A stretch of 64,000 bases of DNA from an uncultured Bacilli bacterium (GCA_947632435.1 CANRPC010000007.1:15327-79326), one strand, 5' to 3'. Positions 2,809 to 64,000 are shown, numbered from the stretch's first letter. Notes: generated by a model from the letters alone, not told the origin. Numbers and translations: made by a program.

Positions 2809-2850
2809 TTTTTTTTGTACTTTTGTTACAATTAAATAAGGGTGAAAAAG

Positions 2851-4296
2851 ATGAATTTATTTGAAAAAATACCAGATAATTTCTTTTCAATTTTATCAAG
2901 TAAGAACAAAAATATTTACGGTATTGCTCTTGTAACTTTATATGAAGCTTTAATAATGTACCGCAACAGAATCCGTAAAAATGATTATATAGATTTATTA
3001 AAATCACGTGGTGAAAAAGAAGTATCTTTATTTTCTTTTGATGATGAAGATATCGGTGAAGATACATCATTAATTTATGAACCAACTTTAAATTCCAAAG
3101 CTAATTTTGTCTTACGTAGATTAATTGATACTGGTTGGGTTTTATTAGAACAAGATGTAAAAACTGGTGCTGAATATTTATTGTTACCTACTTATTCAAT
3201 ATCAATGTTAAAGATTATTTATGAATTTATGAATAATGAGGAGAATAAATATGTTTCTTATGTTCATTCAACTTATTCAGATTTGAAATATGAAGATGAA
3301 TTGCTCGATGAATATATGTATAAAACATTAGAGAGCTCATATAATAAAACTAAAATTCTTGAAGTTGAAGTTGCTAAACTTTTTCACTCGATTCGTGTCT
3401 TTAAAAGACAACTTACAAATATTTTTTCACCTAATGAGGTTTTATCTCAGCATTTTGATAATGCTCGTGAAGATGTTGTTAATCCAATTTATCACCCACT
3501 TAAAACAAGTGATTCGATTATTTTATATCAAGAACCAATATCTTCATTATTAAAAAAATGGTTAATTACTGATGAAGTTAGAGAAAAACTTGTTAAACAA
3601 GCATTAAATGATAATAAAAGTTTAAGAACATTAATAGAAGCAGAAGAAGATGTAATTAAAAAAATTAATTATATCCAAGATACTTATGCCCGTTTAGCAA
3701 ATGAAATTAATGAAATTGATAAAGCTCAAAGTGAATATGTTAAAGCATCAACAGAAAAAGTTATTTATTTAAATAATTCAGATAAATCAATTCGCGGAAA
3801 ACTAGAAACAATATTTTTAGCTTGTGCTAAAACAATAGCAGGAGATAAAAATGGAACATATCCAACAATATTAAAAGATTTAAATAATAGTGTATTATTT
3901 TACCAACAAGGTTATTTAGATAGTGATTCTGTTGCTAAACCTTATAAACGTAATTTCCGTGAAGATGGTGAGCCTTTAGCTCTTGATGATTTTGAACATG
4001 TTCTTGATGAAGGACTAATGCAATCACTTATTAATATTTCTGAAACTTATTCTGAAGAATCAGTCATGGAATTTATGAGAAAGAAATTTAAAAATAAAGA
4101 TGAATTAGAAATGGCTAATATAAAAATTAATGATATTGAAGAATTTATTATGTTGATTCTTGCTTCTTCTAAAGCAAATTCTAAATACTCATTTTATGGT
4201 ATAAATCATCCTAAAGAAAATGAAAATAATCAAATAGTTGTCGATAATTTTAGCGTACCAAATTATACATATTACAAAAAGGAAGAAGGTAAATAA
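2851..4296 (+). CDS. JetA/MksF-like kleisin-family protein, first gene of the SMC-like operon.
   Basis: The ATG at 2851 has an AGGGTG RBS 6 nt upstream. The track's 2842 start would be a GTG lying inside that RBS. The size of about 480 aa and the position directly upstream of a roughly 200-aa gene and a roughly 1100-aa SMC-like ATPase match the JetA (DUF3375) pattern. No catalytic motifs are visible. Confidence 0.5.
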   Translation: MNLFEKIPDNFFSILSSKNKNIYGIALVTLYEALIMYRNRIRKNDYIDLLKSRGEKEVSLFSFDDEDIGEDTSLIYEPTLNSKANFVLRRLIDTGWVLLEQDVKTGAEYLLLPTYSISMLKIIYEFMNNEENKYVSYVHSTYSDLKYEDELLDEYMYKTLESSYNKTKILEVEVAKLFHSIRVFKRQLTNIFSPNEVLSQHFDNAREDVVNPIYHPLKTSDSIILYQEPISSLLKKWLITDEVREKLVKQALNDNKSLRTLIEAEEDVIKKINYIQDTYARLANEINEIDKAQSEYVKASTEKVIYLNNSDKSIRGKLETIFLACAKTIAGDKNGTYPTILKDLNNSVLFYQQGYLDSDSVAKPYKRNFREDGEPLALDDFEHVLDEGLMQSLINISETYSEESVMEFMRKKFKNKDELEMANIKINDIEEFIMLILASSKANSKYSFYGINHPKENENNQIVVDNFSVPNYTYYKKEEGK

Positions 4297-4298
4297 TT

Positions 4299-4904
4299 AT
4301 GTTTGATGAATTATATGAACAATTGACTAATAAAGACAAAGAAATGTTTGCTAAATGCGTTAATGAATTAATGTTAAAATCTTTTATTCTTCGTGAAAAT
4401 TATGATCGAAGCAATAAAATAATGAAACCTAATTATACTTATTCTTTTATTGAAAAAAATATCGATTTAGTTCGTGATTATTTACATTATTCTGGTTGGG
4501 TAGTAGAAAAAGATTCACATCTTGGAGTTATTATGATCCAAAATGAATATCAAGAAAATCGTATTAGAATGGACACAATGACTTCTTTAATGATTTATGC
4601 TTTGCGTTATGCTTATGAATTACAACGGGAACAAAATTCTTTAACTCAAGAAGTTTATTTCTCTTCAGCTTCATTAATGCAATTAATGCTTGATAAATCA
4701 TTACTTCCTCAAGATAAAAGACCATCCGCGGCTAGCTTAGCTTCTTCATATCGTTTTTTAGATAATCATAATATTATTTCACGTATTTCAGGTGAATTTA
4801 GAGATCGTGATTTACAATTTTATATTTTACCATCAATTATTTACATTATTGATAATGATCGTATTAATGCAATATTTGATCAAGTTGAAAAAGCAAAAAA
4901 TTAA
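4299..4904 (+). CDS. JetB/MksE-like (KITE-like) small subunit.
   Basis: The 201-aa ORF starts 3 nt after the upstream stop, giving translational coupling. Size and position match JetB (DUF4194). Confidence 0.45.
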   Translation: MFDELYEQLTNKDKEMFAKCVNELMLKSFILRENYDRSNKIMKPNYTYSFIEKNIDLVRDYLHYSGWVVEKDSHLGVIMIQNEYQENRIRMDTMTSLMIYALRYAYELQREQNSLTQEVYFSSASLMQLMLDKSLLPQDKRPSAASLASSYRFLDNHNIISRISGEFRDRDLQFYILPSIIYIIDNDRINAIFDQVEKAKN

Positions 4905-4919
4905 AGGAGTTTATAATTT

Positions 4920-7900
4920 ATGAAATCATTGAAAAGATTAAGATTAATTAATTGGCATTATTTCTATAATGTCAATGTAGAATTTGATAGAATAAACTTC
5001 TTAACTGGAGAAAACGCAGCAGGAAAATCAACACTTATTGATGCTATGCAGTTATTATTATTAGGTGATACTTCAGGACGTATATTTAACAAAGCGGCAA
5101 ACGAAAAAGCTGGTCGTACTTTAAAAGGCTATTTAAAAGGTGAAATCGGTGATGATGGTGAAGGTGCATATCGTTATTTAAGAAATGGTCGTTTTACCAC
5201 CTACATTGCTATGGAATTTTATGATGATGTTGTTGATAAATCATTTACTTTAGGCATTGTTTTTGATGTTTATGAAGATGGAACTGAACAACATAAATTT
5301 TTCATGTTAGAGGACAAATTCCCACATAATGATTTTTGCAGTTTGAATGTCCCATTATCACAAAAAGAACTCGCTTTATATTTTTCTCAAAATTACAGTC
5401 CAAAAGATTATAATTTCTTTGATACTAATGCTCAATATCAATTGGCTTTAAAAGATCGCTTTGGTAATATCAAAGATAAATATTTTTCTTTATTTAAAAA
5501 AGCAGTTTCTTTTATCCCAATTACTAATATTGAACAATTTATCACGGAATATGTTTGTGATGTTACAGAAAATGTTGATGTATCTTCAATGCGTGATAAT
5601 ATTCAGCAATATAAGCGTTTGGAAATCGAAGCAACAGATATGGAACGAAAAATTTCGAAACTTGAAAAAATACATGAAGCATATCTTGATTTACAAAATA
5701 AACAAAATGATTTAAATTTAGCGGCTTATATTTCTAAGCGTGTTTCTTATCAAGTAAATTTAGATGTGGTTAAAAATTTACAACACGATTTACAATCAAA
5801 TGAAATTCGCTTACAAGAAATAGCTTCAGAAATTGAAAATATTGATAAAGAAATAAAATCATTACAAGAAAAGAAAGAAAATTATATTGCTACGAAAGTT
5901 TCTTCATCTTCTTATCAATTAAGTAAAGATTTAGAATTATCTAAGCAAGATACGATAGCAAAAATTAATCGTATTGAAAATAATATAACTTCTGATTATC
6001 AAAAACTTTTAAGTTATATTAATAATTTTATTAATCAAATTGCTCGTTTAAATGCGGGAATTAATTCTCTTGATGAAAATTTTAAAAAGGAACATTTAAC
6101 TCGTTTTATAGAATTAGAAGATAAAAGTAAAAAACTTTATGATATAGCTACTTCTTTTAAACAAAAATTAAATTCCAAAGAAGATTTATCAAAAGATATA
6201 CTCTTAAGTTTTCGTGATGCCATAAATGAATTTAAAAATGCTTGTAGTGAACATTATGGTTATTTTAAAACTTTAATTAGCTCTGAACTTGCAAAACTTC
6301 ATGCCGCAAAACAAAGTTTACAAGATACATCCGCGACAGGTGGTAAACTTTATGACTATCATTTAAAACAAGTTCATAGTCAACTTATGCATGCCTTAGA
6401 AGATCATTATGGTAAAAAAATAGAGGTATTTTTCTTCGCAGATTTAGTTGATATTAAAGATAAAAAATGGGTTAATGCAATTGAAGGATTTATTTTCTCA
6501 CAAAAAGTTAACATGTTTGTCGAGGAAAAATATTATGAAACCGCGAATAAATTATTAACTAACATTTTACGCCGTAACAATTATTTCCGTACTGGTTTAG
6601 TCGATACAGAACGCTTAAGATCAGCAGGTTTAATTTCTGAAGATAATTCTTTAGCCGAAGAAATTTTAACTGATCATGAAGGTGCAGCTTTATATGCTAA
6701 ATTCTTGTTAGGTAAAATGATAAAATGTGATAACTTCCAAGAAGCAAGAGCTTCAGGACGAGGGTTAACTCCAACTTGTGAAGGTTATCGTAATTATGCT
6801 TCTTTTGTAATTCCAAATGCAAATTATCAATATAAATTAATCGGTAGACAAGTTTCTGAAAGCGATAAGAAAGAACGCTTGAATGAAATACAAAATAAAA
6901 TTGATAAATTAAATGCTGTCAATGAATTTAATAAAGCATTAGAATCTTGTGCTCATGAAGAAACTTTATCTAATAATGAAGCTGAAATTTATTCTTCCCA
7001 TTTAGAAGATGCTTCAATGCTTGAAACATTAAAAAATAAATTGCAAGAATATGAAAGTGAACTTCTTTCTTCAGTTAGTCAAGAAATTTCTATTTTGGAT
7101 AAAAAGATTGCGCAAATTGATGAAGATATTGAATCATTACAAACTAAACGCGAAAGTTTAATTGAAGAAAGAGGCGATTTAAACGCTTCAAATAGACAAA
7201 TTCAAAATGAAAAAATTCCTGCACAAATTGAAAATAGCAATAAATTATTAGATGAAATGAAAAATGAATTTTCTGATGAATTTATTACTCAAGTTGCTTT
7301 ACCAACATTTAATGATGAATTAGAACAAGGTAAATCATTAGGGCAGATACGTAGTGAATACGATGAATTATTTGCTAAAGGTCAATATAAATTACGTAAC
7401 GCAAAAGCTATTTTAAATGAACTTCGTAAAGATTATATTGTTGAATATAAATTAAGTTATGATATAACTCGTGAAGACAATAATGATTTTGACAATGAAT
7501 TATACAATTTAAAAGAAGTTAAATTACCTACTTATAAAGATAAAATAACCGATGCTTATAATAAGGCAACAAAAGAATTTAAAGATGACTTTATCTTTAA
7601 ATTAAAAACTGCGATTGAATCAGTAAGAACTCAAATTGATGAATTAAATATCGCTTTAAATGATGCGACATTTGGTCAAGATTCTTACCAATTTACAGTA
7701 ACTCCTGCACCTCAATATAAAGAATATTATGATATGATAACTGATGAGCTTTTGTTAAGTTATGGTGAAGATGAAAACTTATATCTTGAAAAATATAAAG
7801 ATATAATGGCAAATTTATTTAAATTAATTGGTGATGTTTCTGGTTCTAATGATCAAAATTCCTTATTAGCGCAAAATGTTGCTAAATTTACTGATTATCG

Positions 7901-8309
7901 TACTTATTTACTCTTTGACTTAATGGTTTCTAAAGATGGGGGAAAACCTTATTCTTTAGGTAGAAATATTAAAAAAGCTTCTGGTGGAGAAACTCAAACC
8001 CCATTTTATATTTCTATACTCGCCTCATTTTCCCAATTATATCGGGTAAAGTCGGCATCAAATCTATCTAACACAGTACGTTTAGTAGTTTTTGATGAAG
8101 CATTTTCTAAAATGGATAGAAATCGTATAATAGAATCAATACGTATTTTAAAATCATTCGGATTACAAGTTATTCTATCTGCACCACCTGAAAAAGCAAG
8201 TGATATTTCGAAAATTGTCGATCGAACTTTACTTGTTACTCGTGGTAAAAATCGAAGCTTTGTGGATTCATTTAAAGAACTTGTTACAACTTCTAATGCA
8301 ACAAATTAA
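4920..8309 (+). CDS. JetC/MksB-like SMC-family ATPase.
   Basis: The N-terminus is RLINWHYF...FLTGENAAGKSTLIDAMQLLLLGD (Walker A). A long central coiled-coil-like region is rich in E, K, L and Q. The C-terminus has the ABC signature SGGETQ and Walker B/D-loop RLVVFDEAFSKMD. The protein is 1129 aa, and an AAAGGAG RBS precedes the start. Confidence 0.75.
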   Translation: MKSLKRLRLINWHYFYNVNVEFDRINFLTGENAAGKSTLIDAMQLLLLGDTSGRIFNKAANEKAGRTLKGYLKGEIGDDGEGAYRYLRNGRFTTYIAMEFYDDVVDKSFTLGIVFDVYEDGTEQHKFFMLEDKFPHNDFCSLNVPLSQKELALYFSQNYSPKDYNFFDTNAQYQLALKDRFGNIKDKYFSLFKKAVSFIPITNIEQFITEYVCDVTENVDVSSMRDNIQQYKRLEIEATDMERKISKLEKIHEAYLDLQNKQNDLNLAAYISKRVSYQVNLDVVKNLQHDLQSNEIRLQEIASEIENIDKEIKSLQEKKENYIATKVSSSSYQLSKDLELSKQDTIAKINRIENNITSDYQKLLSYINNFINQIARLNAGINSLDENFKKEHLTRFIELEDKSKKLYDIATSFKQKLNSKEDLSKDILLSFRDAINEFKNACSEHYGYFKTLISSELAKLHAAKQSLQDTSATGGKLYDYHLKQVHSQLMHALEDHYGKKIEVFFFADLVDIKDKKWVNAIEGFIFSQKVNMFVEEKYYETANKLLTNILRRNNYFRTGLVDTERLRSAGLISEDNSLAEEILTDHEGAALYAKFLLGKMIKCDNFQEARASGRGLTPTCEGYRNYASFVIPNANYQYKLIGRQVSESDKKERLNEIQNKIDKLNAVNEFNKALESCAHEETLSNNEAEIYSSHLEDASMLETLKNKLQEYESELLSSVSQEISILDKKIAQIDEDIESLQTKRESLIEERGDLNASNRQIQNEKIPAQIENSNKLLDEMKNEFSDEFITQVALPTFNDELEQGKSLGQIRSEYDELFAKGQYKLRNAKAILNELRKDYIVEYKLSYDITREDNNDFDNELYNLKEVKLPTYKDKITDAYNKATKEFKDDFIFKLKTAIESVRTQIDELNIALNDATFGQDSYQFTVTPAPQYKEYYDMITDELLLSYGEDENLYLEKYKDIMANLFKLIGDVSGSNDQNSLLAQNVAKFTDYRTYLLFDLMVSKDGGKPYSLGRNIKKASGGETQTPFYISILASFSQLYRVKSASNLSNTVRLVVFDEAFSKMDRNRIIESIRILKSFGLQVILSAPPEKASDISKIVDRTLLVTRGKNRSFVDSFKELVTTSNATN

Positions 8310-8324
8310 AAGGAGCTGATTTAT

Positions 8325-8789
8325 TTGCGTTCATATATTTTTGAAGGAAATCAATTTGTTATAGGTTTAGTGGAATTAATTCTTCCTTTTATCTTGCTTT
8401 TGTTAGCGTTAATTTTAATAAGCATATTTATTAAAAAGCGTTCAACTGCGACAGGAATTTGTTTTTTCCTTTTTCTTTCAAGCATTATGATCTTTTTAAA
8501 ATATTATGATTTAGGTTCAATATATTCAAATATATTTAAGATTTTACCTGATTTTGGAATTGGTGATGGAATTAATCACGCGATAGATATCTTAGCTTAT
8601 CCAGTTGAAGAATTGCATTCTTTATTTATAAATCTACTTCTTATTATGAATTTAAATTTAGATGCAGTGACATTTTTTAAAAGTGAAATTTATATTTTAG
8701 TAATTTATGGCTTTTTATTTTTCCTTTCCTTTTTTGTTTTCAAAAAGAAAAAGAAAGAAAAAAGAACATATAGCGATTATGATTTATAA
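8325..8789 (+). CDS. Small polytopic membrane protein (about 4 TM) sitting where a JetD/MksG-type fourth gene would be expected.
   Basis: A TTG start lies 9 nt after an AAGGAG RBS and only 16 nt after the JetC-like stop. There are four hydrophobic helices and a KKKKEKR tail. No Toprim motifs are present. Confidence 0.4.
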   Translation: MRSYIFEGNQFVIGLVELILPFILLLLALILISIFIKKRSTATGICFFLFLSSIMIFLKYYDLGSIYSNIFKILPDFGIGDGINHAIDILAYPVEELHSLFINLLLIMNLNLDAVTFFKSEIYILVIYGFLFFLSFFVFKKKKKEKRTYSDYDL

Positions 8790-52154: not shown

Positions 52155-53033
52155 TTACTTTTTATTTAATTTATCATAAATTGAGGCAATACGCGTAGTT
52201 GATACATGAGTGTAAATTTCTGTTGTATTAATATTACTATGTCCAAGTAATTCTTGTACTAAACGTAAATCCGCGCCATTTTCAACTAGATGTGTAGCAA
52301 ATGAATGCCTTAATGTATGTGGTGTTATATTATCATAAATTTCAGCTTTTAAGGCATATTTTTTTACTTGTTTCCAAAAAAATTGTCTTGATAAAGGTTT
52401 TCCTTGTTTAGAAATAAAAAGATAAGGTGATTTTTTATATTCTATCTTGGAACGAAATTGTTCAATATATAATTTTAAATAGTCTAATGCATAATCACCA
52501 AAGGGGACAATGCGATCTTTACTTCCTTTTCCTTTTATTCTAATGATTTTTTCTTGAATATTTACATTTTTAATTTTTAAAGAGATTAATTCACTTACTC
52601 TTAATCCTGTCGCATACATTAATTCTAACATTGCTTTATCTCTTAATCCTTCTAATTTAGCAATATTTGGCGCATCTAGAAGCGCTTGAACTTCTTCGAT
52701 TGATAAAACTGTAGGCAGATGTTTTGAAAGCTTAGGAAGCTCGATTTTACTTGTCGCATCATGTATTAAGTTTTCACTTTGTAAAAAATGATAAAACGAT
52801 TTAACAGATGATATTTTCCGCGCTATAGTTGTATCTTTTTTTAATTCCTCTTTTAAAATAATAATAAAATGTTCAATATCTTCATTTGTTAAATGCTGTG
52901 CTAATTTAACACCATTAATTGATTTAAAAAAGGCATTAAGATCTTCAGAATAATCTTCAATAGTTTTTAACGATAATCCTTTTTCTACGGTTAAATACTG
53001 CAAAAATAGTTCTTTAGCATCATCTAATTCCAT
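52155..53033 (-). CDS. xerD: Tyrosine recombinase XerD/XerC family.
   Basis: C-terminal R..HSFATHL...GADLR..Q.LLGH......IYTH catalytic motifs. Synteny with deoB matches Bacillus ripX. Confidence 0.8.
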   Translation of the reverse strand: MELDDAKELFLQYLTVEKGLSLKTIEDYSEDLNAFFKSINGVKLAQHLTNEDIEHFIIILKEELKKDTTIARKISSVKSFYHFLQSENLIHDATSKIELPKLSKHLPTVLSIEEVQALLDAPNIAKLEGLRDKAMLELMYATGLRVSELISLKIKNVNIQEKIIRIKGKGSKDRIVPFGDYALDYLKLYIEQFRSKIEYKKSPYLFISKQGKPLSRQFFWKQVKKYALKAEIYDNITPHTLRHSFATHLVENGADLRLVQELLGHSNINTTEIYTHVSTTRIASIYDKLNKK

Positions 53034-53034
53034 T

Positions 53035-54213
53035 TTAATTAGTATTCCTTTCCAAATCTTTTAATGTCATAAATATTTTTTTATCGGCTTTACGATTTAA
53101 TTCATTAATTAAAAGTTTAGTTTTACATTTATTATTTACATTTTCAATATTAAAAAAATTAAGTTGTTCATAATAATTATTTTTACTTACAAAATTAGAT
53201 AGACCAACTCCAATAAGTCGTACTTCTTTTCCATTCCAATTTTGTTCAAATAATGTAATTAATTGCTCTAAAATTTCATTTTCACTTTCTAATGGTTTTA
53301 AAACAGTTTTACTTCTATTTATCGTTTTAAAATTAAAATATCTTATGGTTAAATGCATAGTTAAGGTAAGTAAATTTTTCTTATTAAGTTGATTTACAAT
53401 ATCTTTAACTTGATATTTAATAGAATTTAAAATTTCTTCATATGTTGCAGTATCATAAGCAAAAGTAGATGAAGAAGAAATCGATTTGGCTTCTGGTTTT
53501 ATATATTCTATTTCGCTGCTACTTTTGCCTTCTAAACATAAGATTAATTCATCATAATATTTACCTAAAATAGATCTTAATATATTTTCATCATAATTAT
53601 AAAAATCACCAATGGTTTTAACATCAAGTTTTAATAATTTAATTTGAGTTTTCTTTCCTACGCCATATAAATCTTTAATGGGCAAAGGAAATAATATTTT
53701 TTTAATATCGTGATTATGAATTATTGTTATTCCCATAGGTTTATGCATATCAGAAGCCATTTTGGCAATGAATTTTGTCGTTCCTATACCAATTGAGCAA
53801 CCAAGTCCAGTTTCATTCTTTAATTTCAATTGTAAATTTTTTAAATATAAATATGGATTTTCTTCTTTGATTAAAATTGATGTTACATCTAAATATGCTT
53901 CATCAATTGATGCCATTTCAATATAAGGAGATATAGTATTAGTTAAGATTGAAAAAAAATTATCAGACATTTTTTTGTAATACGAATAATCACCATTTAA
54001 TATTATAAGCGAAGGACATAATTTCATTGCTTGATAAATTGGCATCGCGGAATGAATTCCTTTTTTTCTTGCTTCATAAGATGCAGTAGAAATTACTCCT
54101 CTTTTAAAATCTCCACCTACTGCGATTGGTTTATTTTTTAATTCAGGGTGTCTTAATAATTCACAAGAAACAAAAAAAGCATTTAAATCTATATGCATAA
54201 TTATTCTTGCCAT
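53035..54213 (-). CDS. dinB: DNA polymerase IV.
   Basis: N-terminal IMHIDLNAFFVS. The start is revised to MARII, which has a GGGTGA RBS. Confidence 0.85.
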   Translation of the reverse strand: MARIIMHIDLNAFFVSCELLRHPELKNKPIAVGGDFKRGVISTASYEARKKGIHSAMPIYQAMKLCPSLIILNGDYSYYKKMSDNFFSILTNTISPYIEMASIDEAYLDVTSILIKEENPYLYLKNLQLKLKNETGLGCSIGIGTTKFIAKMASDMHKPMGITIIHNHDIKKILFPLPIKDLYGVGKKTQIKLLKLDVKTIGDFYNYDENILRSILGKYYDELILCLEGKSSSEIEYIKPEAKSISSSSTFAYDTATYEEILNSIKYQVKDIVNQLNKKNLLTLTMHLTIRYFNFKTINRSKTVLKPLESENEILEQLITLFEQNWNGKEVRLIGVGLSNFVSKNNYYEQLNFFNIENVNNKCKTKLLINELNRKADKKIFMTLKDLERNTN

Positions 54214-54294
54214 TTTCATCACCCAAAATTATTTTATCAAACTTATAAAAAAATAGCAAAAAAACTAAGAAGATACTTCCTCTTAGTTTTTTTA

Positions 54295-55272
54295 TTAAAG
54301 ATTATTTAAGGCGTAATTATACATTGCTTCCATATATATTCCATATCCTGCTGTTTTATCATTTGAAAGAACATGAGTTACCGCGCCTACAAGTTTATTA
54401 TTCTGAATAATTGGTGAACCTGACATACCATAATATATTCCTCCACCTAATGAGAGTAATCTTTCATCAGTTATCTTAAAAGAAATTCCTTTTTCATCAA
54501 TTGTATCTTGCTTTTTTAAATTTGTAATTTTTATAGAATATTCTTCAACTTTATTTCCTTTAGTGACGGTATATATTTTAGCATTACCGATTTTTACATC
54601 TTTACTTTTGGCCATTTCTATAGGAACATATGTCGAAGGTATTTCATCAATTGAACCAAAGATACCAAATTCAGAATTTATTTTTATATCGCCTAATTTA
54701 TTCTCTAATTCAGTATCAGAGATTTTCTCTCCAACATCGTCACCATTATTTTTAATTCCTATAACATTAGATTCATAAATTGAACCTGATTTTATATCGA
54801 CAATTGAATCGCTATCAGTGTCATATATTTCGTGTCCTAATGCTCCATAAATATGCTTTTCTGGATCGTAGAAACTAACAGTTCCAATTCCTAAAATTCT
54901 TTCTTTAACATATAAACCTGTTTTAATTTTATCATCAACTTTAATAAGTCTTAAGCTTTTATGATAATAACGATTTTTACGTTTAATAGTTAAATCAACT
55001 TTACCTTTATCAATATATTTATTAAATACATTGATAAATGAAGTTAAGGAATCAACTTTGTAATTTTCAATGGCTTTGATGATATCGCCTTTATTAATAT
55101 CAGAATGCTTGCTAGGATTATAAATATCATTACCTATTTTGACGTCGTAAGTTGATGTGACAATTAAACCATCAGGGCGTACTTCAAAAGCAATATTTTC
55201 CCCACCAGGAACTAAAAATACATTGCTGGCAAATAAAGATATTCCAATACCTAAACCTGTTAAGAGATTCAT
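54295..55272 (-). CDS. SpoIVB-like S55 peptidase with a PDZ domain.
   Basis: N-terminal TM then VPGGENI..., PDZ-like INKGDIIKAIEN, and a Ser-protease-like C-terminus. It lies adjacent to recN, as spoIVB does in Bacillus. Confidence 0.6.
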   Translation of the reverse strand: MNLLTGLGIGISLFASNVFLVPGGENIAFEVRPDGLIVTSTYDVKIGNDIYNPSKHSDINKGDIIKAIENYKVDSLTSFINVFNKYIDKGKVDLTIKRKNRYYHKSLRLIKVDDKIKTGLYVKERILGIGTVSFYDPEKHIYGALGHEIYDTDSDSIVDIKSGSIYESNVIGIKNNGDDVGEKISDTELENKLGDIKINSEFGIFGSIDEIPSTYVPIEMAKSKDVKIGNAKIYTVTKGNKVEEYSIKITNLKKQDTIDEKGISFKITDERLLSLGGGIYYGMSGSPIIQNNKLVGAVTHVLSNDKTAGYGIYMEAMYNYALNNL

Positions 55273-55320
55273 ATAAAACTCCTTTCCAAGCTTAGTATGA
55301 CATTCTTCGACAATTTTATA

Positions 55321-56973
55321 CTAAGATTTTAACCAAGAATTAACTAAGGATAATGAAGCTTCATCAATCTTCCCATTATTAATCATCTTAGCAATTTCTT
55401 CATATCCTTTTTCTTTTGTTAAATTTATAACATGAGAAATGGTTGTTTCATTTTTAACTTCTTTTTTAACTAAATAAAAATGGTCTCCTTTTGAAGCGAC
55501 TTGCCCTAAATGTGAAATAACAAGAACTTGTGTGAGTGAAGCAATTTCTTTGATTTTATTTGCTAAAGCTAAGGCGGCTTTACCTGATAAACCGATATCT
55601 ATTTCATCAAATATCATTGTTTCAACTTCTAATTGTTTAAAAAATACTTTTTTAAAGGCCAGAAGTAATCTTGATGATTCACCAAGAGAAATTGAATCTT
55701 TTAAAGCTAAAGCTTCCATTCCTTTATTTGCACTTAGTAAAAATCTTATATCACTTGTTCCATTTTTATTGAAATTTGTTTTATAAAAAGAAATTTTAAA
55801 ATGAGCATTTGAAAAAAGTAAATCACTTAATTCTTTATCGATGATTTTTGCTAATTCCAAAGCGTATTTTTTTCTTATTGAAGTTAAAATTTCTCCATCA
55901 TTTTCTAAAGGAATCAATAATTTTTCTCTTTCTTTTTTTAATTTCTCCAAAGTAAAACTTGCATTTTCAAATATATCAAGTGTATTTTTAATTTCATTTT
56001 TATACTCGAGCATTTCTTTAGTTGAAGAACCATATTTTCTTTTTAAGGAACGAAGATAAAATAGTCTATCTTTAATGGCATCAAGATTTTGACTATCTTG
56101 TAATAATTTTTCAAACTTATTTTTTATTTCACTTTGTGCTTCATCTAAAAGATAATATGCATCAACATATTTTTCTTTAAGTGAACTTATAGAATCATCG
56201 TTAATTGAATCTAATTCTCTTTTTGCTTGAAAAATAGAATTTATACCTTCATCAGAATTAGTTAAAAACCTTTCAACTTTATTCATTAATAAAGATAAAG
56301 AACTTAAGGAAGCATATTGACTTTCTAATTCTTCAAGCTCATTTTCTTTAAGATCTGCTTTTTCAAGTTCATCGAGTTGAAATAATAAATAATCTTTATC
56401 AATATTTTCTTTTAAAATTGTTTCATATTTATTTATTTCTTTTTCAAGTGTGATGATGTTTTGATATGATTTATTATAATTTAAATAATATTTTTCATCA
56501 TTTTTGTAATTTTTATGTTGTCTTATAAAAGAATCTAATATTTCAATTTGTTTTTTTTCATCATAAAAAAATAGTTCTTCTTTTGGATAATGGCGATCAA
56601 TTAAATAATAGGCAATATTTTTAATGACACTTAAAGGAACAATATGAGAATTAATTCGCTGCGTTGATTTTCCTTTAATATCTAAACTTCTTGATATTAT
56701 AAGAACATTATCTTCTAAATAATCTCCATATATATCTTCAAGTTTTTTAATAGTATTTTCATTTAAAATAAATTCGCCTTCAATAAATGCTTTATTTTGT
56801 CCATTTCTAATTTTTTCAAAATCAGATTTTCCACCAAGCAATAAATTAATCGCGTCCATTAAAATTGATTTTCCAGCGCCAGTTTCTCCAATAATTACAT
56901 TCATATTATCTTGAAATGCGCAATCGAGATCATCAATTAAAGCAAAATGTTCAACATGTAAATGTCTAAGCAT
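55321..56973 (-). CDS. recN: DNA repair protein RecN.
   Basis: N-terminal Walker A GETGAGKS, coiled coil, and a C-terminal signature/Walker B region. Confidence 0.9.
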   Translation of the reverse strand: MLRHLHVEHFALIDDLDCAFQDNMNVIIGETGAGKSILMDAINLLLGGKSDFEKIRNGQNKAFIEGEFILNENTIKKLEDIYGDYLEDNVLIISRSLDIKGKSTQRINSHIVPLSVIKNIAYYLIDRHYPKEELFFYDEKKQIEILDSFIRQHKNYKNDEKYYLNYNKSYQNIITLEKEINKYETILKENIDKDYLLFQLDELEKADLKENELEELESQYASLSSLSLLMNKVERFLTNSDEGINSIFQAKRELDSINDDSISSLKEKYVDAYYLLDEAQSEIKNKFEKLLQDSQNLDAIKDRLFYLRSLKRKYGSSTKEMLEYKNEIKNTLDIFENASFTLEKLKKEREKLLIPLENDGEILTSIRKKYALELAKIIDKELSDLLFSNAHFKISFYKTNFNKNGTSDIRFLLSANKGMEALALKDSISLGESSRLLLAFKKVFFKQLEVETMIFDEIDIGLSGKAALALANKIKEIASLTQVLVISHLGQVASKGDHFYLVKKEVKNETTISHVINLTKEKGYEEIAKMINNGKIDEASLSLVNSWLKS

Positions 56974-56975
56974 AT

Positions 56976-57203
56976 TTATTCGTTTTTATCCTTTTCAGGT
57001 TCATAAACCTTTTTTTCATTTTCTTCAACAATAAAAGCAACTTTGTTCGCGGCTTCTTCAAGTTCTTTATTTAATGAAGCAGCTAAAACTTTTGCTTTTT
57101 CATATAGTTCAATACTTTCTTTTAAACCTTTTTTTTCATTTTCTAAAGTATTAGTAATTTCCTCTAATTGTTTTAATTTTTCTTCAAATGTCATTTCTTT
57201 CAT
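56976..57203 (-). CDS. xseB: Exodeoxyribonuclease VII small subunit.
   Basis: 75 aa with FEEKLKQLEEI...LE N-terminus. Confidence 0.8.
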   Translation of the reverse strand: MKEMTFEEKLKQLEEITNTLENEKKGLKESIELYEKAKVLAASLNKELEEAANKVAFIVEENEKKVYEPEKDKNE

Positions 57204-58467
57204 TTTTTTTCTCCTTCAATATAATTTTGGCACTTATTAATCCATCTTTTAAATGTAAATTAATTATTTCTCCAACATTAACTTCATCAATAGAACTGAT
57301 AATTTTATCTTCTTTATTAGATAAAAAACTATATCCTTTATCAAGTAATTTTAAGGGTGATAAAACATTAATTTTATTAATTAATTTTTGATAATGGAAT
57401 AATTTATCTTTATAACATTGGCTTAATGAAACTTTTAAATTTTTTTCTAAAATAGCAAGATATTGTTTTCTATCTTTAATAATACTATTCAAAGAAAATG
57501 TACATTTTTGAAAATTTGTTTCTATTAATTGTAATAAATATTCTTTTCTTTTTAAGACATTATTATTTTCAATTATTCTTGTCATGGAAATAAGTTTTAT
57601 TGAATAATTATCAATTTTATGGAGCAATATATTTTTAATTTTTTCCATATTTTGTTTTATTGCTTGCTGATATTCTTCTTTTGTTAATATTACTTCATTT
57701 CCTGCATCAGTAGGTGTTATACAACTTTTGGAAGAAACTTTATCAATTAATGATGAATCAATTGAATGACCAACAGCACTAATTGTAAAGACATTACATG
57801 TTGCAAAAGCTTTTACTAATTCTTCATCATTAAAAACATATAAATCATCTTTAGATCCTCCTCCACGAGTTAAAATAATAACATCAGGATTATAAGTTAA
57901 TGATTTTTGCAAAGCATTGATAATCGTTTCATTAGCTTTTTCTCCTTGTACAGAGCAAGGAAATATATAAATTTCAGTACGACATTTTTTTTGGATCGTC
58001 GATACAACATCACAAATAGCCGCGCCTTTTAAAGATGTTAATATGGCAATGCGCTTAGGAAAATATGGCTTTGGCTTTTTTTCAAGTGAAAAATAACCTT
58101 CATTATTTAATTTTACCTCAAGTAATTTAAGTTCATAAAGATATTTACCAATTCCACTTTGTTCAATCTTTTTAACATTTAATGAATATGTTCCACCTTT
58201 TTCATAAACATTAATGGAACCATGACAAATAACTTCATCACCATCTTTTAATTCTTGATAAGCAAATTTTGTATAACTTGAAAACATAATACATGATAAT
58301 ATTGCTCCGTTTTTATCACGCAGCTTAAAATAATAATGTCCTGTATAATGTTTATTTAACGAGGTAATTTCTCCTTGAACTAAGATTGAAGAAAAAATAA
58401 AATCTCCTTCAATAATTGTTTTTATTTCTTCATTTAATCTTGATACAGTAAATATTTCTGTTTCCAT
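57184..58467 (-). CDS. xseA: Exodeoxyribonuclease VII large subunit.
   Basis: N-terminal OB-fold (VQGEI....H.....YF.L.D) and a catalytic domain; 427 aa. Confidence 0.85.
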   Translation of the reverse strand: METEIFTVSRLNEEIKTIIEGDFIFSSILVQGEITSLNKHYTGHYYFKLRDKNGAILSCIMFSSYTKFAYQELKDGDEVICHGSINVYEKGGTYSLNVKKIEQSGIGKYLYELKLLEVKLNNEGYFSLEKKPKPYFPKRIAILTSLKGAAICDVVSTIQKKCRTEIYIFPCSVQGEKANETIINALQKSLTYNPDVIILTRGGGSKDDLYVFNDEELVKAFATCNVFTISAVGHSIDSSLIDKVSSKSCITPTDAGNEVILTKEEYQQAIKQNMEKIKNILLHKIDNYSIKLISMTRIIENNNVLKRKEYLLQLIETNFQKCTFSLNSIIKDRKQYLAILEKNLKVSLSQCYKDKLFHYQKLINKINVLSPLKLLDKGYSFLSNKEDKIISSIDEVNVGEIINLHLKDGLISAKIILKEKKNERNDI

Positions 58468-58469
58468 AT

Positions 58470-58877
58470 TTAAATAACTTTATCAAGCAAAGCATTTACA
58501 AAACGATAATCTTTATCAGAGCCATATTTTTTTGCTAAATCAACACAAACATCAATAATAGCAGCTTTAAATAGACCATCTGCTTCAACATATTTTGCTT
58601 CAGTTATACCTAATAAAAGAATAGCAATTATTACCATATTCATTCTATTAAGTTTCCATGTTGTTAAATTAACTTCGATTAATTTTAAAGAAGATTCAAG
58701 ATTTATAAATGTTTTAATAACCGTTTCTTTAATAAATAAAGATACATCATCATAATTATTTTCTGAAATTTCTTCAATAAGTGATTTAATATCTTTTTCT
58801 ATATGATAGACAAGATTAAAATAATGATTATAAATAATTTTCATTATTAATTCTTGTTCTTGATTTCTACTTAACAT
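58470..58877 (-). CDS. nusB: Transcription antitermination factor NusB.
   Basis: 135 aa, position upstream of xseA. Confidence 0.8.
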   Translation of the reverse strand: MLSRNQEQELIMKIIYNHYFNLVYHIEKDIKSLIEEISENNYDDVSLFIKETVIKTFINLESSLKLIEVNLTTWKLNRMNMVIIAILLLGITEAKYVEADGLFKAAIIDVCVDLAKKYGSDKDYRFVNALLDKVI

Positions 58878-58934
58878 TTTTTTACCTCATGCCAAATTAT
58901 TGTAGCATAATTAAATTTTCATTCCTATAAATTT

Positions 58935-59456
58935 TTATTTCTTGTTGTTATTTTTATTAAAAGCAGATGCTTTAACAATGTTATTATAAAATATTAATAA
59001 ATAAATTAAATATCCTATTACCACAAAATGGACCGCATAAGGAGTTAAAATATTGTATATCGATGATTTTTCATTTAATAAATATAGATTTCTTGGAATA
59101 AAAAACATAATTAAAGTGTCGATGCAATATATAATAAAGGTAATAACTAATGGCTTAAGTTTTCCTTTTCTAACATTAAAAGCCAAAATTAAAAAAACAA
59201 TATCAAATATTAAAGAAAAAATAAATGATAGCAAATACTTTGTAAAAATATTTAAATTTGTTTTAAAAATAAGACCATGAATTAATATATTAGAGGCAAA
59301 ACCTAATGTATAAGTTAAATCATTTTTAAATAAAATAATAATAAAAGAAATAAGATTTAAAATACTTATCCAAAAGATAACACTTGTTTTTTGAGTGTAT
59401 TTTTTAACCTTATCTCTTATTTCACTTCTTGACATTTTATTTGAGATTTTCATCAA
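58935..59456 (-). CDS. Polytopic membrane protein partnered with Asp23.
   Basis: About 5 TM helices and a 20-nt overlap with the asp23-like gene. Confidence 0.45.
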   Translation of the reverse strand: MMKISNKMSRSEIRDKVKKYTQKTSVIFWISILNLISFIIILFKNDLTYTLGFASNILIHGLIFKTNLNIFTKYLLSFIFSLIFDIVFLILAFNVRKGKLKPLVITFIIYCIDTLIMFFIPRNLYLLNEKSSIYNILTPYAVHFVVIGYLIYLLIFYNNIVKASAFNKNNNKK

Positions 59457-59784
59457 TACCCGCTATTTTTATTACAGGTGTAAAAGGAACAAGTTCTGTC
59501 ATATCGGATATTGCTGTGACAACTTCTTCTTGTATTGTTTTAATTATTTTATCGACATCAATACCTTTTTTTACTTTAATTTCAATATATGATGTAACTT
59601 TACCATTTTTAATTTCACAATGTACAGGTTTGTGAAAAGAAAAAAGTGATTTTTTGGTGGCCTTAGTTAAACTCACACCTTGAATTTTATTTGTAACAAT
59701 GGTTATTATTTCATCAAATACATCATGTGAAATAGCTAATTTTCCACGATTTGCATAATTATTAATGTAAAAATATTCCGCCAT
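59437..59784 (-). CDS. Asp23/Gls24-family alkaline shock protein (YqhY-like).
   Basis: GKLAISHDVFDEIITIV...GV Asp23 signature. Its position upstream of nusB matches B. subtilis yqhY. Confidence 0.75.
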   Translation of the reverse strand: MAEYFYINNYANRGKLAISHDVFDEIITIVTNKIQGVSLTKATKKSLFSFHKPVHCEIKNGKVTSYIEIKVKKGIDVDKIIKTIQEEVVTAISDMTELVPFTPVIKIAGIDENLK

Positions 59785-59803
59785 AATAAATACCTCTTTT
59801 AAC

Positions 59804-60832
59804 TTAAATAGCTGCTTTTAAATCTTGTTGGTTATTTTCTTTAATATAAAGAGTGGATTGATTATCAAAAACTAATTCAACATCATCTTTATGATTTAAA
59901 GTATCTAAATTATATTTGTTTTTCTTAACTTCTTTAAAGCATCTTATATAATGACCTGAGTGAATAGATACATGTTTATGTAAATATTGCACATAGATAA
60001 TATTATCATTTTTAGCAAAATTAATTAAAAATTTAAGCATTTGTTTTGGTAAAAGATTATCATAAAATTTACCATTTATATAAGTTTCATTATCTTTATA
60101 AAGTATTTTGAAATTATCATGTAAATTCAAAATTATTCCACCTTCACCAAAGGTTAATTTACCATTTAAATATTCATTTTCATTATAATTTTTATATGTT
60201 TTCATTAAGTTAAAATATGTAGAAATGCGATTAGCAATTTCTTGATATTGTTTTTTATTTATTGATCCATCTTTTTTTAAATAATTTTTAACTAATTTCC
60301 AAGAAATTTTATATACTTTCTTCTCTTTAATATGATCAAGTATTTTAATTGAATCCTCAAAATAAGATTTATCGTTTAAATCATCATACATAAAAGGATT
60401 GAATTCTTTAAGAGCTAAATTAACTAATTTATATTTCATTTCATAAGAAATATGACGCTTTTTTAAACGCTTACTTTTAACAATAAATGGTTCACAAGAC
60501 ATTACAACTTGCTTATCCTCTAAATTATGTTTAGCATAAATAGATGTTTTATTAATTTTAAAAGTGGTGTCATTGATAATATTTTGATAATTTTCTTCAA
60601 AATTTCCAAAACATAAATAAGAACAATTAGAATAATTTATTGATTTATTTTGTTCATCATAAAATGTTTCGACATCAAGCATTTTTTTATGGTTAATTCC
60701 TTGCTCTTTAAGAAAATTAAAAACATCTAAATATAATTTAGGCATTTTTTTCTGAATTAACTTACATTCGTCGCATTTACAATTAATTAAATTCTTATAA
60801 TATTTCTTATTTAATTCAGAATCTATTTCCAT
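59804..60832 (-). CDS. Hypothetical protein with an N-terminal C-x-C-x2-C cluster.
   Basis: 342 aa starting ...NCKCDECK.... No recognisable family. It lies 20 nt upstream of asp23 on the same strand. Confidence 0.4.
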   Translation of the reverse strand: MEIDSELNKKYYKNLINCKCDECKLIQKKMPKLYLDVFNFLKEQGINHKKMLDVETFYDEQNKSINYSNCSYLCFGNFEENYQNIINDTTFKINKTSIYAKHNLEDKQVVMSCEPFIVKSKRLKKRHISYEMKYKLVNLALKEFNPFMYDDLNDKSYFEDSIKILDHIKEKKVYKISWKLVKNYLKKDGSINKKQYQEIANRISTYFNLMKTYKNYNENEYLNGKLTFGEGGIILNLHDNFKILYKDNETYINGKFYDNLLPKQMLKFLINFAKNDNIIYVQYLHKHVSIHSGHYIRCFKEVKKNKYNLDTLNHKDDVELVFDNQSTLYIKENNQQDLKAAI

Positions 60833-61120
60833 AATTAAAACCTTGCCCTTTTCATTTATTATTTTATCTTAATTTTTACAAATAAAAAAGTATTTTTAAT
60901 TAATGAATATGCATTTATGATGATTTTTTTATAGAAATTTAAAAGAAACCATCAAAATGACAGTTTCTTTTAAAGAAAGGAGGTGATAAACAAGTAAAAC
61001 AATTTTAAAAAAAACTGCTTTTTTTCTAATTAAGTTCTCAGATTAATCTCTAATTACATTTATATTTTAATAAATTTTACTTTAAGAAAAAAGAGTTTTT
61101 TTATAAATAATTAAAAAAAT

Positions 61121-61789
61121 TTATAAGGTAAAAGAATAACTTTGATCAATTAAATTTAAAATTTCTTCATCACTTATTGTGTCATTTAAAATTATACTAA
61201 TCCAATTTTTTTTATTCATATGATAAGCTAAATAATAGCCATCTTTTTTTAATAATTCCTCTATTGTTTTAAAAGGTAATTTGATATTTATTATTTCAAT
61301 TTCTCCTTTTGAATTTTTAGCGATTTTACTTTTATCAATGTTCATTATTAACCCATACCATTTATTAGTATTTTTATTTTTAAATGCAGCATAGTTTACA
61401 TATTTATCCCAAGGAAAATTTGGTTCATCATTATATTTTTCTTTTATCTTTTTAACAATTCTATTTGTTTGTTCAAAAATGAATAATTGAGTTATAAAAC
61501 ATTTATTTTTTATATCATTTAATAATTTTATAAATTCATTTTTAACTTTTAAAGCATATTCTCCATTAAAATTTTCAATTCGATAATTTATATATTCTTC
61601 ATTTAATGCTAAATCATAAATGTTTCCTTTTACGTTACTTTTATTATCAATATAAATATCAATTCTTAAAGTGTTATGTAAAATATTTTTAGAATATTTA
61701 AATGTTTCATTTTCTTTTTTAAATCCATATTTAATTAATTTAGTTAAATCAACTTTTGCTTTTTTAAATATTTCTTCTTCAATTGACAT
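61121..61789 (-). CDS. MmcQ/YjbR-family (DUF419) DNA-binding-like domain with an N-terminal extension of about 110 aa.
   Basis: The C-terminal half matches E. coli YjbR by eye (..W..YG...MN..K...NKKNWISIILNDTISDEEILNLIDQSY versus LNKAHWSTVYLDGSLPDSQIYYLVDASYQ). The start lies 10 nt after the upstream DUF262 gene stop. Confidence 0.5.
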   Translation of the reverse strand: MSIEEEIFKKAKVDLTKLIKYGFKKENETFKYSKNILHNTLRIDIYIDNKSNVKGNIYDLALNEEYINYRIENFNGEYALKVKNEFIKLLNDIKNKCFITQLFIFEQTNRIVKKIKEKYNDEPNFPWDKYVNYAAFKNKNTNKWYGLIMNIDKSKIAKNSKGEIEIINIKLPFKTIEELLKKDGYYLAYHMNKKNWISIILNDTISDEEILNLIDQSYSFTL

Positions 61790-61798
61790 ATTAACAAT

Positions 61799-63613
61799 TT
61801 ATTCTTCTAATCCACCATTTTTATCCCAATTATAAATTAAAATCTTTTTATAAAGTTCAGCTCGTTCGATTATAGAACTTTTTTTAAATTCACTATAGGC
61901 TTTAAATGGCAATTTACTTTTTTGAACAAAGCGAAGGAAATCTGGATTATTTACATATTTTTTTTCATTTAATGTTTGAGCTAAAATATTCTGTTCAAAG
62001 TATTGTTCAACTTTAATTGAATATGGTTTATCATTATATGAAGCATTAAACGATTTTGGCAAAACAAGTAAACATCCAATATTATTTCTCATCGATGCAA
62101 AAGCATAAGAATCATCAAATTCATCTAAATGTTCTTCAAAATGATTGCTCCATATATGCTCTACTTCAATATTTGGTTTATTTAATATATAGTCAGGGGC
62201 AGAAGAATTTTTAGCAACAATTTCCGTAATTAATGATAATAATACTTTTAATTTTGGTTTATTTTGTTGATTTAAGGTTGGTGAATTATTTAAAGAAGGC
62301 AATTCAATTGGATCATGATATAAAACTTCTTTTAATGCTTTAATATCTAAATCTCGAATTTTTTTGCAAAGGGTATAAATAGGTGTTTCTAAAGAACTTT
62401 GTGAAATCATATAATGATTCCAAACTCTCCATGTTAAAACTTTAGTTATATATTTTGATACAATTTTTATTTTTTCATCGACAATTATTTCACTATCATT
62501 GTATTTAATCGCAGATAAAATGAGTGAAGGTTGCAATGTAAAATTATAATCATTATTAACAATTAGATATAAATAATCTTTTGCATTTCTTTTTAAAATA
62601 ATATCGTTAATTTTTTTGTACTGTTTAGAAAAATAAGCAATTTTGTTAATAAATTCAAAATAATCAGAAGATGATTTAAGATTTAATAAAGTTTTATCAT
62701 TATCTCTAAACCAACGATGAAATTCTTTACCAATACGTACAAAATCGGATGTAGCATTTTTTGAAGTTGAAAAATCTTCAGCATAATGTCCCCTAAAATA
62801 TATTTTGAAAAATTCAAATTCAGCCTTTGATTTAGAACTCAATTTTATATTAACAAGACAATTTATAACTTCATCAAAAAGTGTCATTGCTTTAGTTCTA
62901 TTATTTTCATCAATATTTGCAAGCAAATATGAACGTAGCATTTCAACTTGTGTTAATGATAAACCACGATCATTCATTGTTTCAAATATTACATAAGCAA
63001 ATTCATCGCTATTTGTCCATACTTTAGAAAATACAACTTTTTCTTTTATCCAATATACAAAATTAACAATATTTTTTTCTGTTATTTTTTGATTCCAACA
63101 ATCAGCTATATCATTATATCTATCGACAATATTCTGTACATATTGCTGATCTTTATCAGTTGGAGTATAACTTCCAAATTTATATAAAGAAAGCATGCAG
63201 TCTTTTCTTTCTTCAATATCAAGATTAAATCTCAAAGTACCAAAATCATCACTATATATTGCCTTTTCGATATCGGCACGTGGAAATGAAGGTAAATTAC
63301 CATATGTTTTAAGCATGTAAATAAGCAATAATGTAAATGTTGTAATTCTTTGTTGACCATCAATAATGGCGCTACGTTCTCCTTCTTTAACTGATAAAAC
63401 AATTTCTCCCATAAAATATGGATCATAATTTCTTACTTTTTCAATTGTGTCACCATCATTCCAATTCTTAAGAAATTCTATTGAGAGATCATTTATTAAA
63501 TCTTCTAATTGTTTTCTTTGCCAAACATATTCTCTTTGATAAAAATCGACATTAAATTTATCTAAAAATAATTCTTTTAACGGATATGCTTTACTATCAA
63601 CAATTTTTGCCAT
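61799..63613 (-). CDS. DUF262/DUF1524 (GmrSD-family) nuclease, a candidate type IV modification-dependent restriction enzyme.
   Basis: N-terminal FYQREYVW...IIDGQQRITT (DGQQR motif of the DUF262 ParB-like NTPase) and C-terminal ...EVEHIWSNHFEEH... (His-Me/HNH-like DUF1524); 604 aa. Confidence 0.75.
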   Translation of the reverse strand: MAKIVDSKAYPLKELFLDKFNVDFYQREYVWQRKQLEDLINDLSIEFLKNWNDGDTIEKVRNYDPYFMGEIVLSVKEGERSAIIDGQQRITTFTLLLIYMLKTYGNLPSFPRADIEKAIYSDDFGTLRFNLDIEERKDCMLSLYKFGSYTPTDKDQQYVQNIVDRYNDIADCWNQKITEKNIVNFVYWIKEKVVFSKVWTNSDEFAYVIFETMNDRGLSLTQVEMLRSYLLANIDENNRTKAMTLFDEVINCLVNIKLSSKSKAEFEFFKIYFRGHYAEDFSTSKNATSDFVRIGKEFHRWFRDNDKTLLNLKSSSDYFEFINKIAYFSKQYKKINDIILKRNAKDYLYLIVNNDYNFTLQPSLILSAIKYNDSEIIVDEKIKIVSKYITKVLTWRVWNHYMISQSSLETPIYTLCKKIRDLDIKALKEVLYHDPIELPSLNNSPTLNQQNKPKLKVLLSLITEIVAKNSSAPDYILNKPNIEVEHIWSNHFEEHLDEFDDSYAFASMRNNIGCLLVLPKSFNASYNDKPYSIKVEQYFEQNILAQTLNEKKYVNNPDFLRFVQKSKLPFKAYSEFKKSSIIERAELYKKILIYNWDKNGGLEE

Positions 63614-63813
63614 GATAACTTCCTCTTTTTATTCATTATATCAATTTATTTATAACTTTCCAAAAATTTCTTCTAATAAATATATTTTAAAATTATGTAG
63701 GTTTTAAAATAAAAAAGGGAGCAGTTACTCAAATTAATAATTCTATATAGATTATTGTAACTTGAAAAGTACTAGTCTAATCGAATATAGAAAAATAAAT
63801 AGCGGTTAATAAC

Positions 63814-64000
63814 TAGTAAGAACTTAATATTAAAGATGAAGAAATTTCATTAATTGAAAAAACAATTGAAGTTGATTCTATTTGATCAAATATAAATAAA
63901 TCATAGAAAGTAATATAATTTAAATATTTATCATCATCATAATCAGTTTTAATTCTTTCAATATTTAATGCATTTTTATTGTAATCTATGTGTAAATAAT
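63814..64000 (-). CDS. C-terminal fragment (61 codons) of an ORF that starts beyond the window end.
   Basis: Open minus-strand frame from the window edge to TAG at 63816-63814. There is no homology basis. Confidence 0.2.

Follow-up and report, generated by a model that had tools for sequence, protein, structure and literature searches.

A predicted single-polypeptide GmrSD-family Type IV-like defence nuclease from an uncultured gut Bacilli bacterium

The locus and its GmrSD-family gene

We analysed a stretch of 64,000 nucleotides (nt) from an uncultured Bacilli bacterium (GCA_947632435.1, CANRPC010000007.1:15327-79326), referred to here in its full length as the window, the source of which is an uncultured low-GC gut Firmicute (window G+C about 24%). 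Close to the right-hand end of the window lies a minus-strand gene for a GmrSD-family protein, in which a DUF262 NTPase domain, an all-helical middle domain and a DUF1524 His-Me finger nuclease domain follow one another in one chain (Table 1). The open reading frame (ORF) given for this position in a first-pass annotation, a single polypeptide of 604 amino acids (aa), agrees exactly with the ORF listing, and the gene is intact and maintained by selection. An AGAGGA ribosome-binding site can be read 7-8 nt 5′ of the ATG, and a consensus scan places a promoter-like TTGGAA-17-TATAAT element with an extended-10 TG at 63663-63635, which is a consensus match only, the number of such sites in this AT-rich DNA being that expected from shuffled sequence. 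In base composition the gene is not distinct from its neighbours.

Table 1. Features of the GmrSD-family gene and its immediate surroundings, in window positions.
Feature	Position	Strand	Evidence
GmrSD-family gene: DUF262 NTPase, helical middle domain and DUF1524 His-Me nuclease	61799..63613	-	ATG-started ORF, 604 aa plus stop codon
DUF262 / GmrSD_N (ParB/Srx-like NTPase) domain, residues 15-231	62921..63571	-	Pfam envelope; aligned to DndI residues 20-261
DGQQR NTP-hydrolysis motif, residues 85-89	63347..63361	-	Sequence; invariant in 119/119 close and at least 122/125 distant homologs
All-helical middle (linker) domain, about residues 236-470	62204..62908	-	DSSP of AlphaFold2 model: helices only, 236 to 469
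DUF1524 / GmrSD_C His-Me finger nuclease domain, residues 450-587	61853..62266	-	Pfam envelope; beta-beta-alpha core in model
E485-H486 catalytic dyad (VEHIW)	62156..62161	-	119/119 close homologs; distant homologs E 118/125, H 121/125
Cys514 (TGT) at canonical central-Asn position of HNH motif	62072..62074	-	Alignments of homologs
Asn523, predicted metal-binding Asn of His-Me finger	62045..62047	-	N in 118/119 close and 119/125 distant homologs
Promoter-like site and AGAGGA ribosome-binding site, 5′ of GmrSD ATG	63619..63663	-	Consensus scan and sequence
YjbR/MmcQ-domain gene, 222 aa	61121..61789	-	Pfam YjbR 60 bits; 9 nt after GmrSD stop
Terminator-like hairpin and T-run after YjbR gene	60938..60974	-	Only such site in 60700-64000; shuffle mean 0.4

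Family assignment and predicted structure

The first-pass annotation had placed the protein in the GmrSD family, and profile searches bear this out, with Pfam GmrSD_N (PF03235) reaching 100.6 bits (gathering score 33.2; E 1.7e-28, residues 15-231) and GmrSD_C (PF07510) reaching 31.8 bits (gathering score 23; E 1.6e-07, residues 450-587) in the same polypeptide. When 1.84 billion cluster representatives were searched exhaustively, relatives turned up in 5421 representative clusters at E<=1e-3 and in 330 at E<=1e-30, and most of the best 150 aligned full-length at 30-40% identity. Since both Pfam scores exceed their gathering cut-offs and so many clusters match, a chance match is ruled out. The top PADLOC models are those of HEC-06, which carry no curated cut-off (2.4e-30, 1.9e-27 and 1e-26, the last spanning residues 6-543), followed with nearly equal scores by ‘Orf5’, a name not traceable to any described system, then by SspE and weakly by mREase_IV (3.3e-09, N-terminal part only). 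NCBIfam has no model for the protein, PHROGs match it to one family of unknown function only, and NCBI names its close relatives ‘DUF262 domain-containing protein’.

The predicted structure leads to the same family. An AlphaFold2 model built from an alignment of 103 sequences (mean predicted local distance difference test score 89.9, predicted template modelling score 0.74) combines an N-terminal domain of alpha/beta type with a middle region made of helices alone, as is typical of GmrSD-like proteins (10.1101/2024.01.29.577857), and with a beta-beta-alpha core made up of strands 482-486 and 515-519 and helix 520-526. When compared with the PDB by Foldseek, the model matches 12 chains at E<=1e-3, every one of them DndI, SspE or BrxU, with the next match at E 0.69, so that the fold is matched only by GmrSD-like enzymes. 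A profile search of solved structures ranks DndI first (1.7e-10), ahead of an 818-aa ‘DUF262 domain-containing protein’ (PDB 20yv / 20yw, 1.1e-08, N-terminal motif region only), SspE and BrxU (0.2). By its sequence the protein is a clear member of the GmrSD superfamily, in a clade without a characterised representative.

Motifs of the NTPase and nuclease domains

For the motifs we followed the definitions of Machnicka et al. 2015 (PMC4619093), and their conservation was read from two alignments, one of 119 close homologs that share 65-83% identity, the other of 125 distant representatives. GmrS is described by a QR pair, (I/V)(I/V)DGQQRxTT and FxxxN, and GmrD by (I/L/V)(E/D)H(I/L/V)xPQ and L(G/A)NLxLL, the whole being of an E/D-H-N-N type (PMC4619093). 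All of the NTPase motifs are intact in the window protein, as Y25-Q26-R27, I83-I-D-G-Q-Q-R-I-T-T92 and F210-E-T-M-N214 followed by D-R-G, and QR, DGQQR and FxxxN are invariant or nearly so in both sets of homologs. The DGQQR motif to which the first-pass annotation had pointed is therefore present and strictly kept.

In the nuclease domain the catalytic part of the first GmrD motif is found as V484-E485-H486-I487, the E-H pair being invariant among close homologs, and the trailing P-Q is replaced by S-N (A/P/S then N/D throughout the clade). The signature conserved in both alignments is E485-H486 ... R509 ... G513 ... N523-x-S525, with Asn523 aligned to N541 of DndI; His491 and His495 are conserved among close relatives only. 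Counterparts of these residues are needed in characterised relatives, as Q79A/R80A and E471A/H472A abolish defence by HEC-06 (10.1101/2024.01.29.577857), R87A abolishes defence by DndI and DndI N541A loses both nuclease activity and defence (PMC11662687). The C-terminal nuclease segment first described as an HNH-like H...N...H is thus present, but its signature is E-H...N, and the position of the central Asn is taken by a cysteine.

This cysteine, Cys514, stands in I512-G513-C514-L-L-V-L, where the second GmrD motif would have its Asn and where the neighbouring G and LLxL are kept. Close homologs carry Asp (114/119) or Gly (5/119) at this position, and distant representatives are more varied still (G56/A34/N17/D9/S6/C2 of 125). 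As the same TGT codon recurs in six independent assemblies from other samples, Cys514 is real, and we reject an assembly error as its source. The residue also raises the question of whether the gene is an inactive or decaying copy with its nuclease disabled in the HNH core. D514C, which takes two nucleotide changes, and Q283T are the sole departures from residues conserved in at least 95% of close homologs, and N522A at a comparable position inactivates Eco94GmrSD (PMC4619093). Against this, the ORF is intact, all other motif residues are kept, the ratio of non-synonymous to synonymous substitution rates (dN/dS) is 0.06, Gly514 occurs in five separate close homologs, some of them found on up to 30 contigs, and the wider clade admits G, A, N, D, S or C, including two other cysteines. 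With the position this variable and the Gly variants persisting on many contigs, we reject Cys514 as an inactivating lesion and hold a decayed copy to be very improbable. Given that the codon is real in six assemblies, that the column varies in distant relatives and that Gly variants persist, the alignments suggest instead that the clade does not use the central Asn and that the change to Cys514 is probably harmless. The first-pass annotation had held that a mutated HNH motif would speak against membership of the family; Cys514 superficially resembles such a mutation, yet it does not refute the assignment, because position 514 is variable throughout the clade.

Homologs, their contexts and selection

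Homologs at 60-83% identity come from metagenome-assembled genomes (MAGs) and isolates labelled Clostridia, Clostridiales, Bacilli, Anaeroplasma, Oscillospiraceae, Christensenella, Butyrivibrio and Selenomonas. Some homologs (65-69%) lie on rumen or gut contigs binned as Thermoguttaceae (Planctomycetota) and Deferribacteraceae, which reflects either recent inter-phylum transfer or mis-binning.

The settings of these genes differ from one locus to the next. One homolog is solitary and adjoins smpB, a hotspot, and another sits between PDDEXK_4 and unknown genes on one side and a yqfD-phoH-ybeY-era-recO block on the other. At the locus of a 67% homolog (L020:1012-5969) a 265-aa unknown ORF ends against the start of the homolog, and downstream of it come a convergent 763-aa AAA_13 ATPase and then a phage-like replication module with DUF2800/PDDEXK_1, an Enc34 ssDNA-binding protein and a family A DNA polymerase. 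The 83% homolog (L022:1-10941) belongs to a compact defence island with HNH_2, an RE_AlwI-type endonuclease, SIR2_2, TnpV and 23S_rRNA_IVP; the start of this homolog overlaps a 146-aa ORF without assigned function, which recurs in a second contig (L023). Predicted proviral contigs carry one 60% homolog and several full-length relatives at 27-28% identity.

No neighbouring gene is conserved among the loci of the 60-83% homologs, and no dnd, ssp or BREX gene is annotated there. The lack of a conserved partner fits a single-protein system, and the stand-alone character put forward in the first-pass annotation is upheld in this respect. Furthermore, dN/dS is about 0.06 relative to the 83% homolog, with dS near saturation, and the gene is under strong purifying selection. 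Because the contexts vary, no partner is conserved and dN/dS is low, we regard it as a self-contained, horizontally mobile and selectively kept gene of a predicted defence function.

Neighbouring genes

In the direction of transcription the GmrSD gene is followed by a YjbR-domain gene, orf342, an Asp23-family gene, a 173-aa membrane ORF, nusB, xseA and xseB, and after xseB by recN, spoIVB, dinB and an xerD-like gene. This order agrees with the earlier statement that the gene lies outside the nusB-xseAB-recN block. At least 390 bp 5′ of the GmrSD gene are apparently non-coding, and a 61-codon open frame at the window edge probably belongs to this non-coding DNA since it has no homolog and not even a self-match. 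Signatures of insertion in 58800-64000 amount to AT-rich chance repeats, and no tRNA gene or Rfam match is found there.

The nearest neighbour encodes a 222-aa protein of which only the C-terminal residues 118-219 form the YjbR/MmcQ domain, the N-terminal 117 residues matching no Pfam family. Members of its own family are of two sizes, either 222-235 aa or about 347 aa, and many gut MAGs encode such proteins at 55-62% identity. The terminator-like hairpin beyond this gene is likely the end of the transcription unit, and the 9-nt gap, together with the absence of any other such hairpin in the interval surveyed, indicates that the two genes are probably co-transcribed. This arrangement might mark a two-gene module, in which a YjbR/MmcQ-type DNA-binding protein would serve the nuclease as regulator, specificity factor or antidote, and it speaks for such a module that both genes share a strand and that six independent assemblies of the same population show them arranged identically. 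However, neither a YjbR homolog nor an orf342 homolog is found near the GmrSD gene at any of 16 related loci, the homologs of the YjbR protein (55-62% identity) occur in unrelated contexts without GmrSD, and the protein has no PADLOC and no PHROG match. On these grounds the YjbR gene is rejected as a conserved partner, and a functional module of the two genes seems to us distinctly improbable. The next gene, orf342 (59804-60832, minus strand), encodes 342 aa behind an upstream intergenic region of its own, matches nothing in Pfam, PADLOC, NCBIfam or PHROGs, and is seen in contigs of the same population only.

Those contigs (L024-L031, n=8, from ENA and Logan assemblies, reached through the Asp23 and YjbR proteins, with a coverage of 4-5x) correspond to window positions 52718-63579, and one of them, L024, matches the window at 100% identity along all of its 10,862 nt. 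L028 and L029 already break off within the YjbR gene. The remaining six reach into the GmrSD gene, where their ends fall at differing places, and not one of the contigs runs beyond the 5′ end of that gene. The breaks may be random, or the right flank may be repetitive or strain-variable. An exact 40-mer scan of JGI metagenomes for DNA beyond position 64000 returned no match.

The genes surveyed across the 64 kb window include no dnd, ssp, BREX or restriction-modification genes, and apart from the GmrSD gene they show a single defence-like locus, a jetABC cluster some 53 kb away. This cluster (2842-8309, plus strand) comprises Wadjet type I-like jetA (484 aa), jetB (201 aa) and jetC (1129 aa), which match PADLOC and Pfam models very strongly (JetC1 1040 bits), without jetD; the next ORF (8325-8789) encodes a 154-aa hydrophobic protein without a family match, and no JetD-sized ORF is nearby. 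The cluster may represent either an MksBEF-like condensin that lacks JetD or a Wadjet system in decay.

A model for the GmrSD-family protein

We propose that the gene encodes a stand-alone, single-polypeptide GmrSD-family Type IV-like defence nuclease, most likely directed against modified phage DNA, a reading to which we would give a probability of roughly 0.7. In this model the ParB/Srx-like DUF262 domain would bind and hydrolyse NTP by means of DGQQR, while the helical middle domain would probably hold two subunits together as a homodimer, by analogy with BrxU, SspE and DndI. Hydrolysis of NTP would in turn control the nicking or cleavage of DNA by the DUF1524 His-Me finger (E485-H486 ... 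N523), and the most likely substrate would be invading phage DNA that carries modified bases, as in Type IV restriction. With modified phage DNA as its target, the protein would need neither a cognate methyltransferase nor any other partner. As for its present location, a mobile GmrSD gene would have settled beside the Asp23-nusB-xseAB-recN block, where it probably shares a transcript with a YjbR-domain gene to which it is unrelated. We infer the NTPase and nuclease activities, the dimerisation, the anti-phage role, the modification dependence and the modification recognised by analogy with characterised members of the family. A modified-DNA target agrees with Eco94GmrSD and BrxU, which are stand-alone NTP-dependent Type IV restriction nucleases acting on modified phage DNA, and with the HEC-06 homologs, including HEC-06_Bact from gut Bacteroides, which block T4 and do not block the cytosine-containing T4-GT7 (10.1101/2025.02.28.640651).

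Several points weigh against this model. The activities are putative, and the protein is by alignment only 18-26% identical to any characterised member. The two proteins of solved structure nearest to it, DndI and SspE, detect host phosphorothioate (PT) and not phage base modifications. The canonical central HNH Asn is Cys here, unlike the Asp of 114/119 close homologs. Finally, the view ends at position 64000, and a partner system to the right of the gene is possible.

The distance from characterised members also bears on whether the nuclease depends on modification at all, for it might answer to another trigger, or cut unmodified foreign DNA while the host protects itself by some other route. 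This would be in keeping with an identity to HEC-06 of only 26%, confined to the N-terminal domain, and with a nuclease motif that reads EHIW-S-N in place of the GmrD consensus EHxxPQ and has lost the central Asn. Yet all of the characterised stand-alone members are reported to be modification-dependent (Eco94GmrSD, BrxU and, in vivo, HEC-06_Bact), and a solitary nuclease acting on unmodified DNA would be toxic, which is difficult to square with the strong purifying selection estimated for the gene. We therefore consider an enzyme of this kind unlikely, although it keeps a small but real share of our expectation. Within the proposed Type IV-like reading there is room for a more speculative thought, that the clade recognises a gut-phage DNA modification targeted by no characterised GmrSD-like enzyme, perhaps, in this lineage, with the probably co-transcribed YjbR/MmcQ DNA-binding protein recruited as a new accessory subunit. 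It rests on the clade being without the central Asn, on the Asp that replaces the proline of the PT patch of DndI (see below) and on the abundance of the clade in gut and rumen Firmicutes, and we think it a long shot.

The protein is an ordinary addition to a well-known defence family, of which the family itself, the domains and the role are already established, and the current understanding of that family is unchanged by one more predicted Type IV-like defence gene in an uncultured gut Firmicute. Only two points are mildly notable: that the central HNH Asn, replaced by Cys here, has been lost across the clade, and that the gene probably forms a lineage-specific operon with the YjbR-domain gene. 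What the locus documents is a populous uncharacterised GmrSD-like clade (the 330 representative clusters noted above) whose nuclease motif lacks the textbook central Asn, which is of use to annotation pipelines and in the choice of gut-derived GmrSD variants against modified phages.

Comparison with known systems

GmrSD proper (EcoCT / Eco94GmrSD) and BrxU (PDB 7P9K) share with the window protein both Pfam domains and the QR, DGQQR, FxxxN and E/D-H...N motifs. They are nevertheless much more distant relatives, BrxU reaching a profile E of 0.2 and a TM-score (template modelling score) of 0.26, and, unlike GmrSD proper, the window protein has neither the central Asn of L(G/A)NLxLL nor the PQ after EHx. 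No BREX genes that would go with BrxU membership are seen among the genes surveyed in the window or near the homologs.

The nearest solved structure by both sequence and fold is DndI (PDB 9JFL; IscS-DndBCDE-DndI of Salmonella Cerro 87; PMC11662687), with a sequence match of 5.8e-08, a Foldseek E of 1e-11, a full-length TM-score of 0.51 and 18% identity. The two proteins have the same size and domain order, and DGQQR falls at an equal position (D83-R87 in DndI, D85-R89 in the window protein). SspE (PDB 6JIV/7DRS) likewise joins a DUF262 NTPase to a C-terminal His-Me nickase (Foldseek E 9e-11), although it is about 770 aa long and only 12% identical. The gene for DndI, a sensor of host PT, adjoins dndBCDE, and SspE is coupled to SspABCD and stimulated by PT, whereas no dnd or ssp genes are seen around the window protein. 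These resemblances, to which the SspE matches in PADLOC may be added, would also suit a PT-sensing effector, in which host PT licenses NTPase-controlled nicking of PT-free phage DNA and the dnd or ssp genes lie elsewhere in the genome. The hydrophobic patch by which DndI senses PT consists of P23, Y25 and Q26, and the window protein does have Tyr25 and Gln26. These two residues, however, are part of a family-wide (Y/F)QR motif, and the discriminating Pro23 is Asp23 here, with Asp in 117/119 close and 98/125 distant homologs and Pro in only 5/125 of the latter. Together with an identity to DndI of only 18% and the lack of dnd and ssp genes among those surveyed in the window and those annotated near homologs, this makes a PT-sensing effector improbable, and we keep to a nuclease directed against modified phage DNA.

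HEC-06 of E. coli (Payne et al., 10.1101/2024.01.29.577857) offers the closest parallel to such a nuclease among the PADLOC models. A full-length comparison by hhalign aligns it with the window protein over 459 columns (probability 99%, E 9e-18), while BLASTP detects 26% identity in the N-terminal 227 residues only. HEC-06 keeps EHICP and the central Asn (RLGNMVLM), in contrast to the EHIW(S/A) and variable residue, Cys here, of the clade of the window protein. It has been found embedded in Hma systems (10.1101/2024.01.29.577857), whereas none adjoins the GmrSD gene in the visible part of the locus. Its own setting varies as well: in E. coli S3 (NZ_CP010228.1; L067:6001-7683) the HEC-06 gene is part of a Rac-like prophage with recET, racC, kilR and sieB, outside any Hma system, and a gene that matches the opening 399 nt published for the tested HEC-06 at 99% or more occurs in 30 complete E. 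coli genomes (five listed ones at 100%). Like the window protein, HEC-06 is not tied to one fixed partner gene. Both are single polypeptides of about 560-600 aa in which DUF262, a helical middle domain and DUF1524 follow one another, and both have the DGQQR motif and the E-H dyad that are essential in HEC-06.

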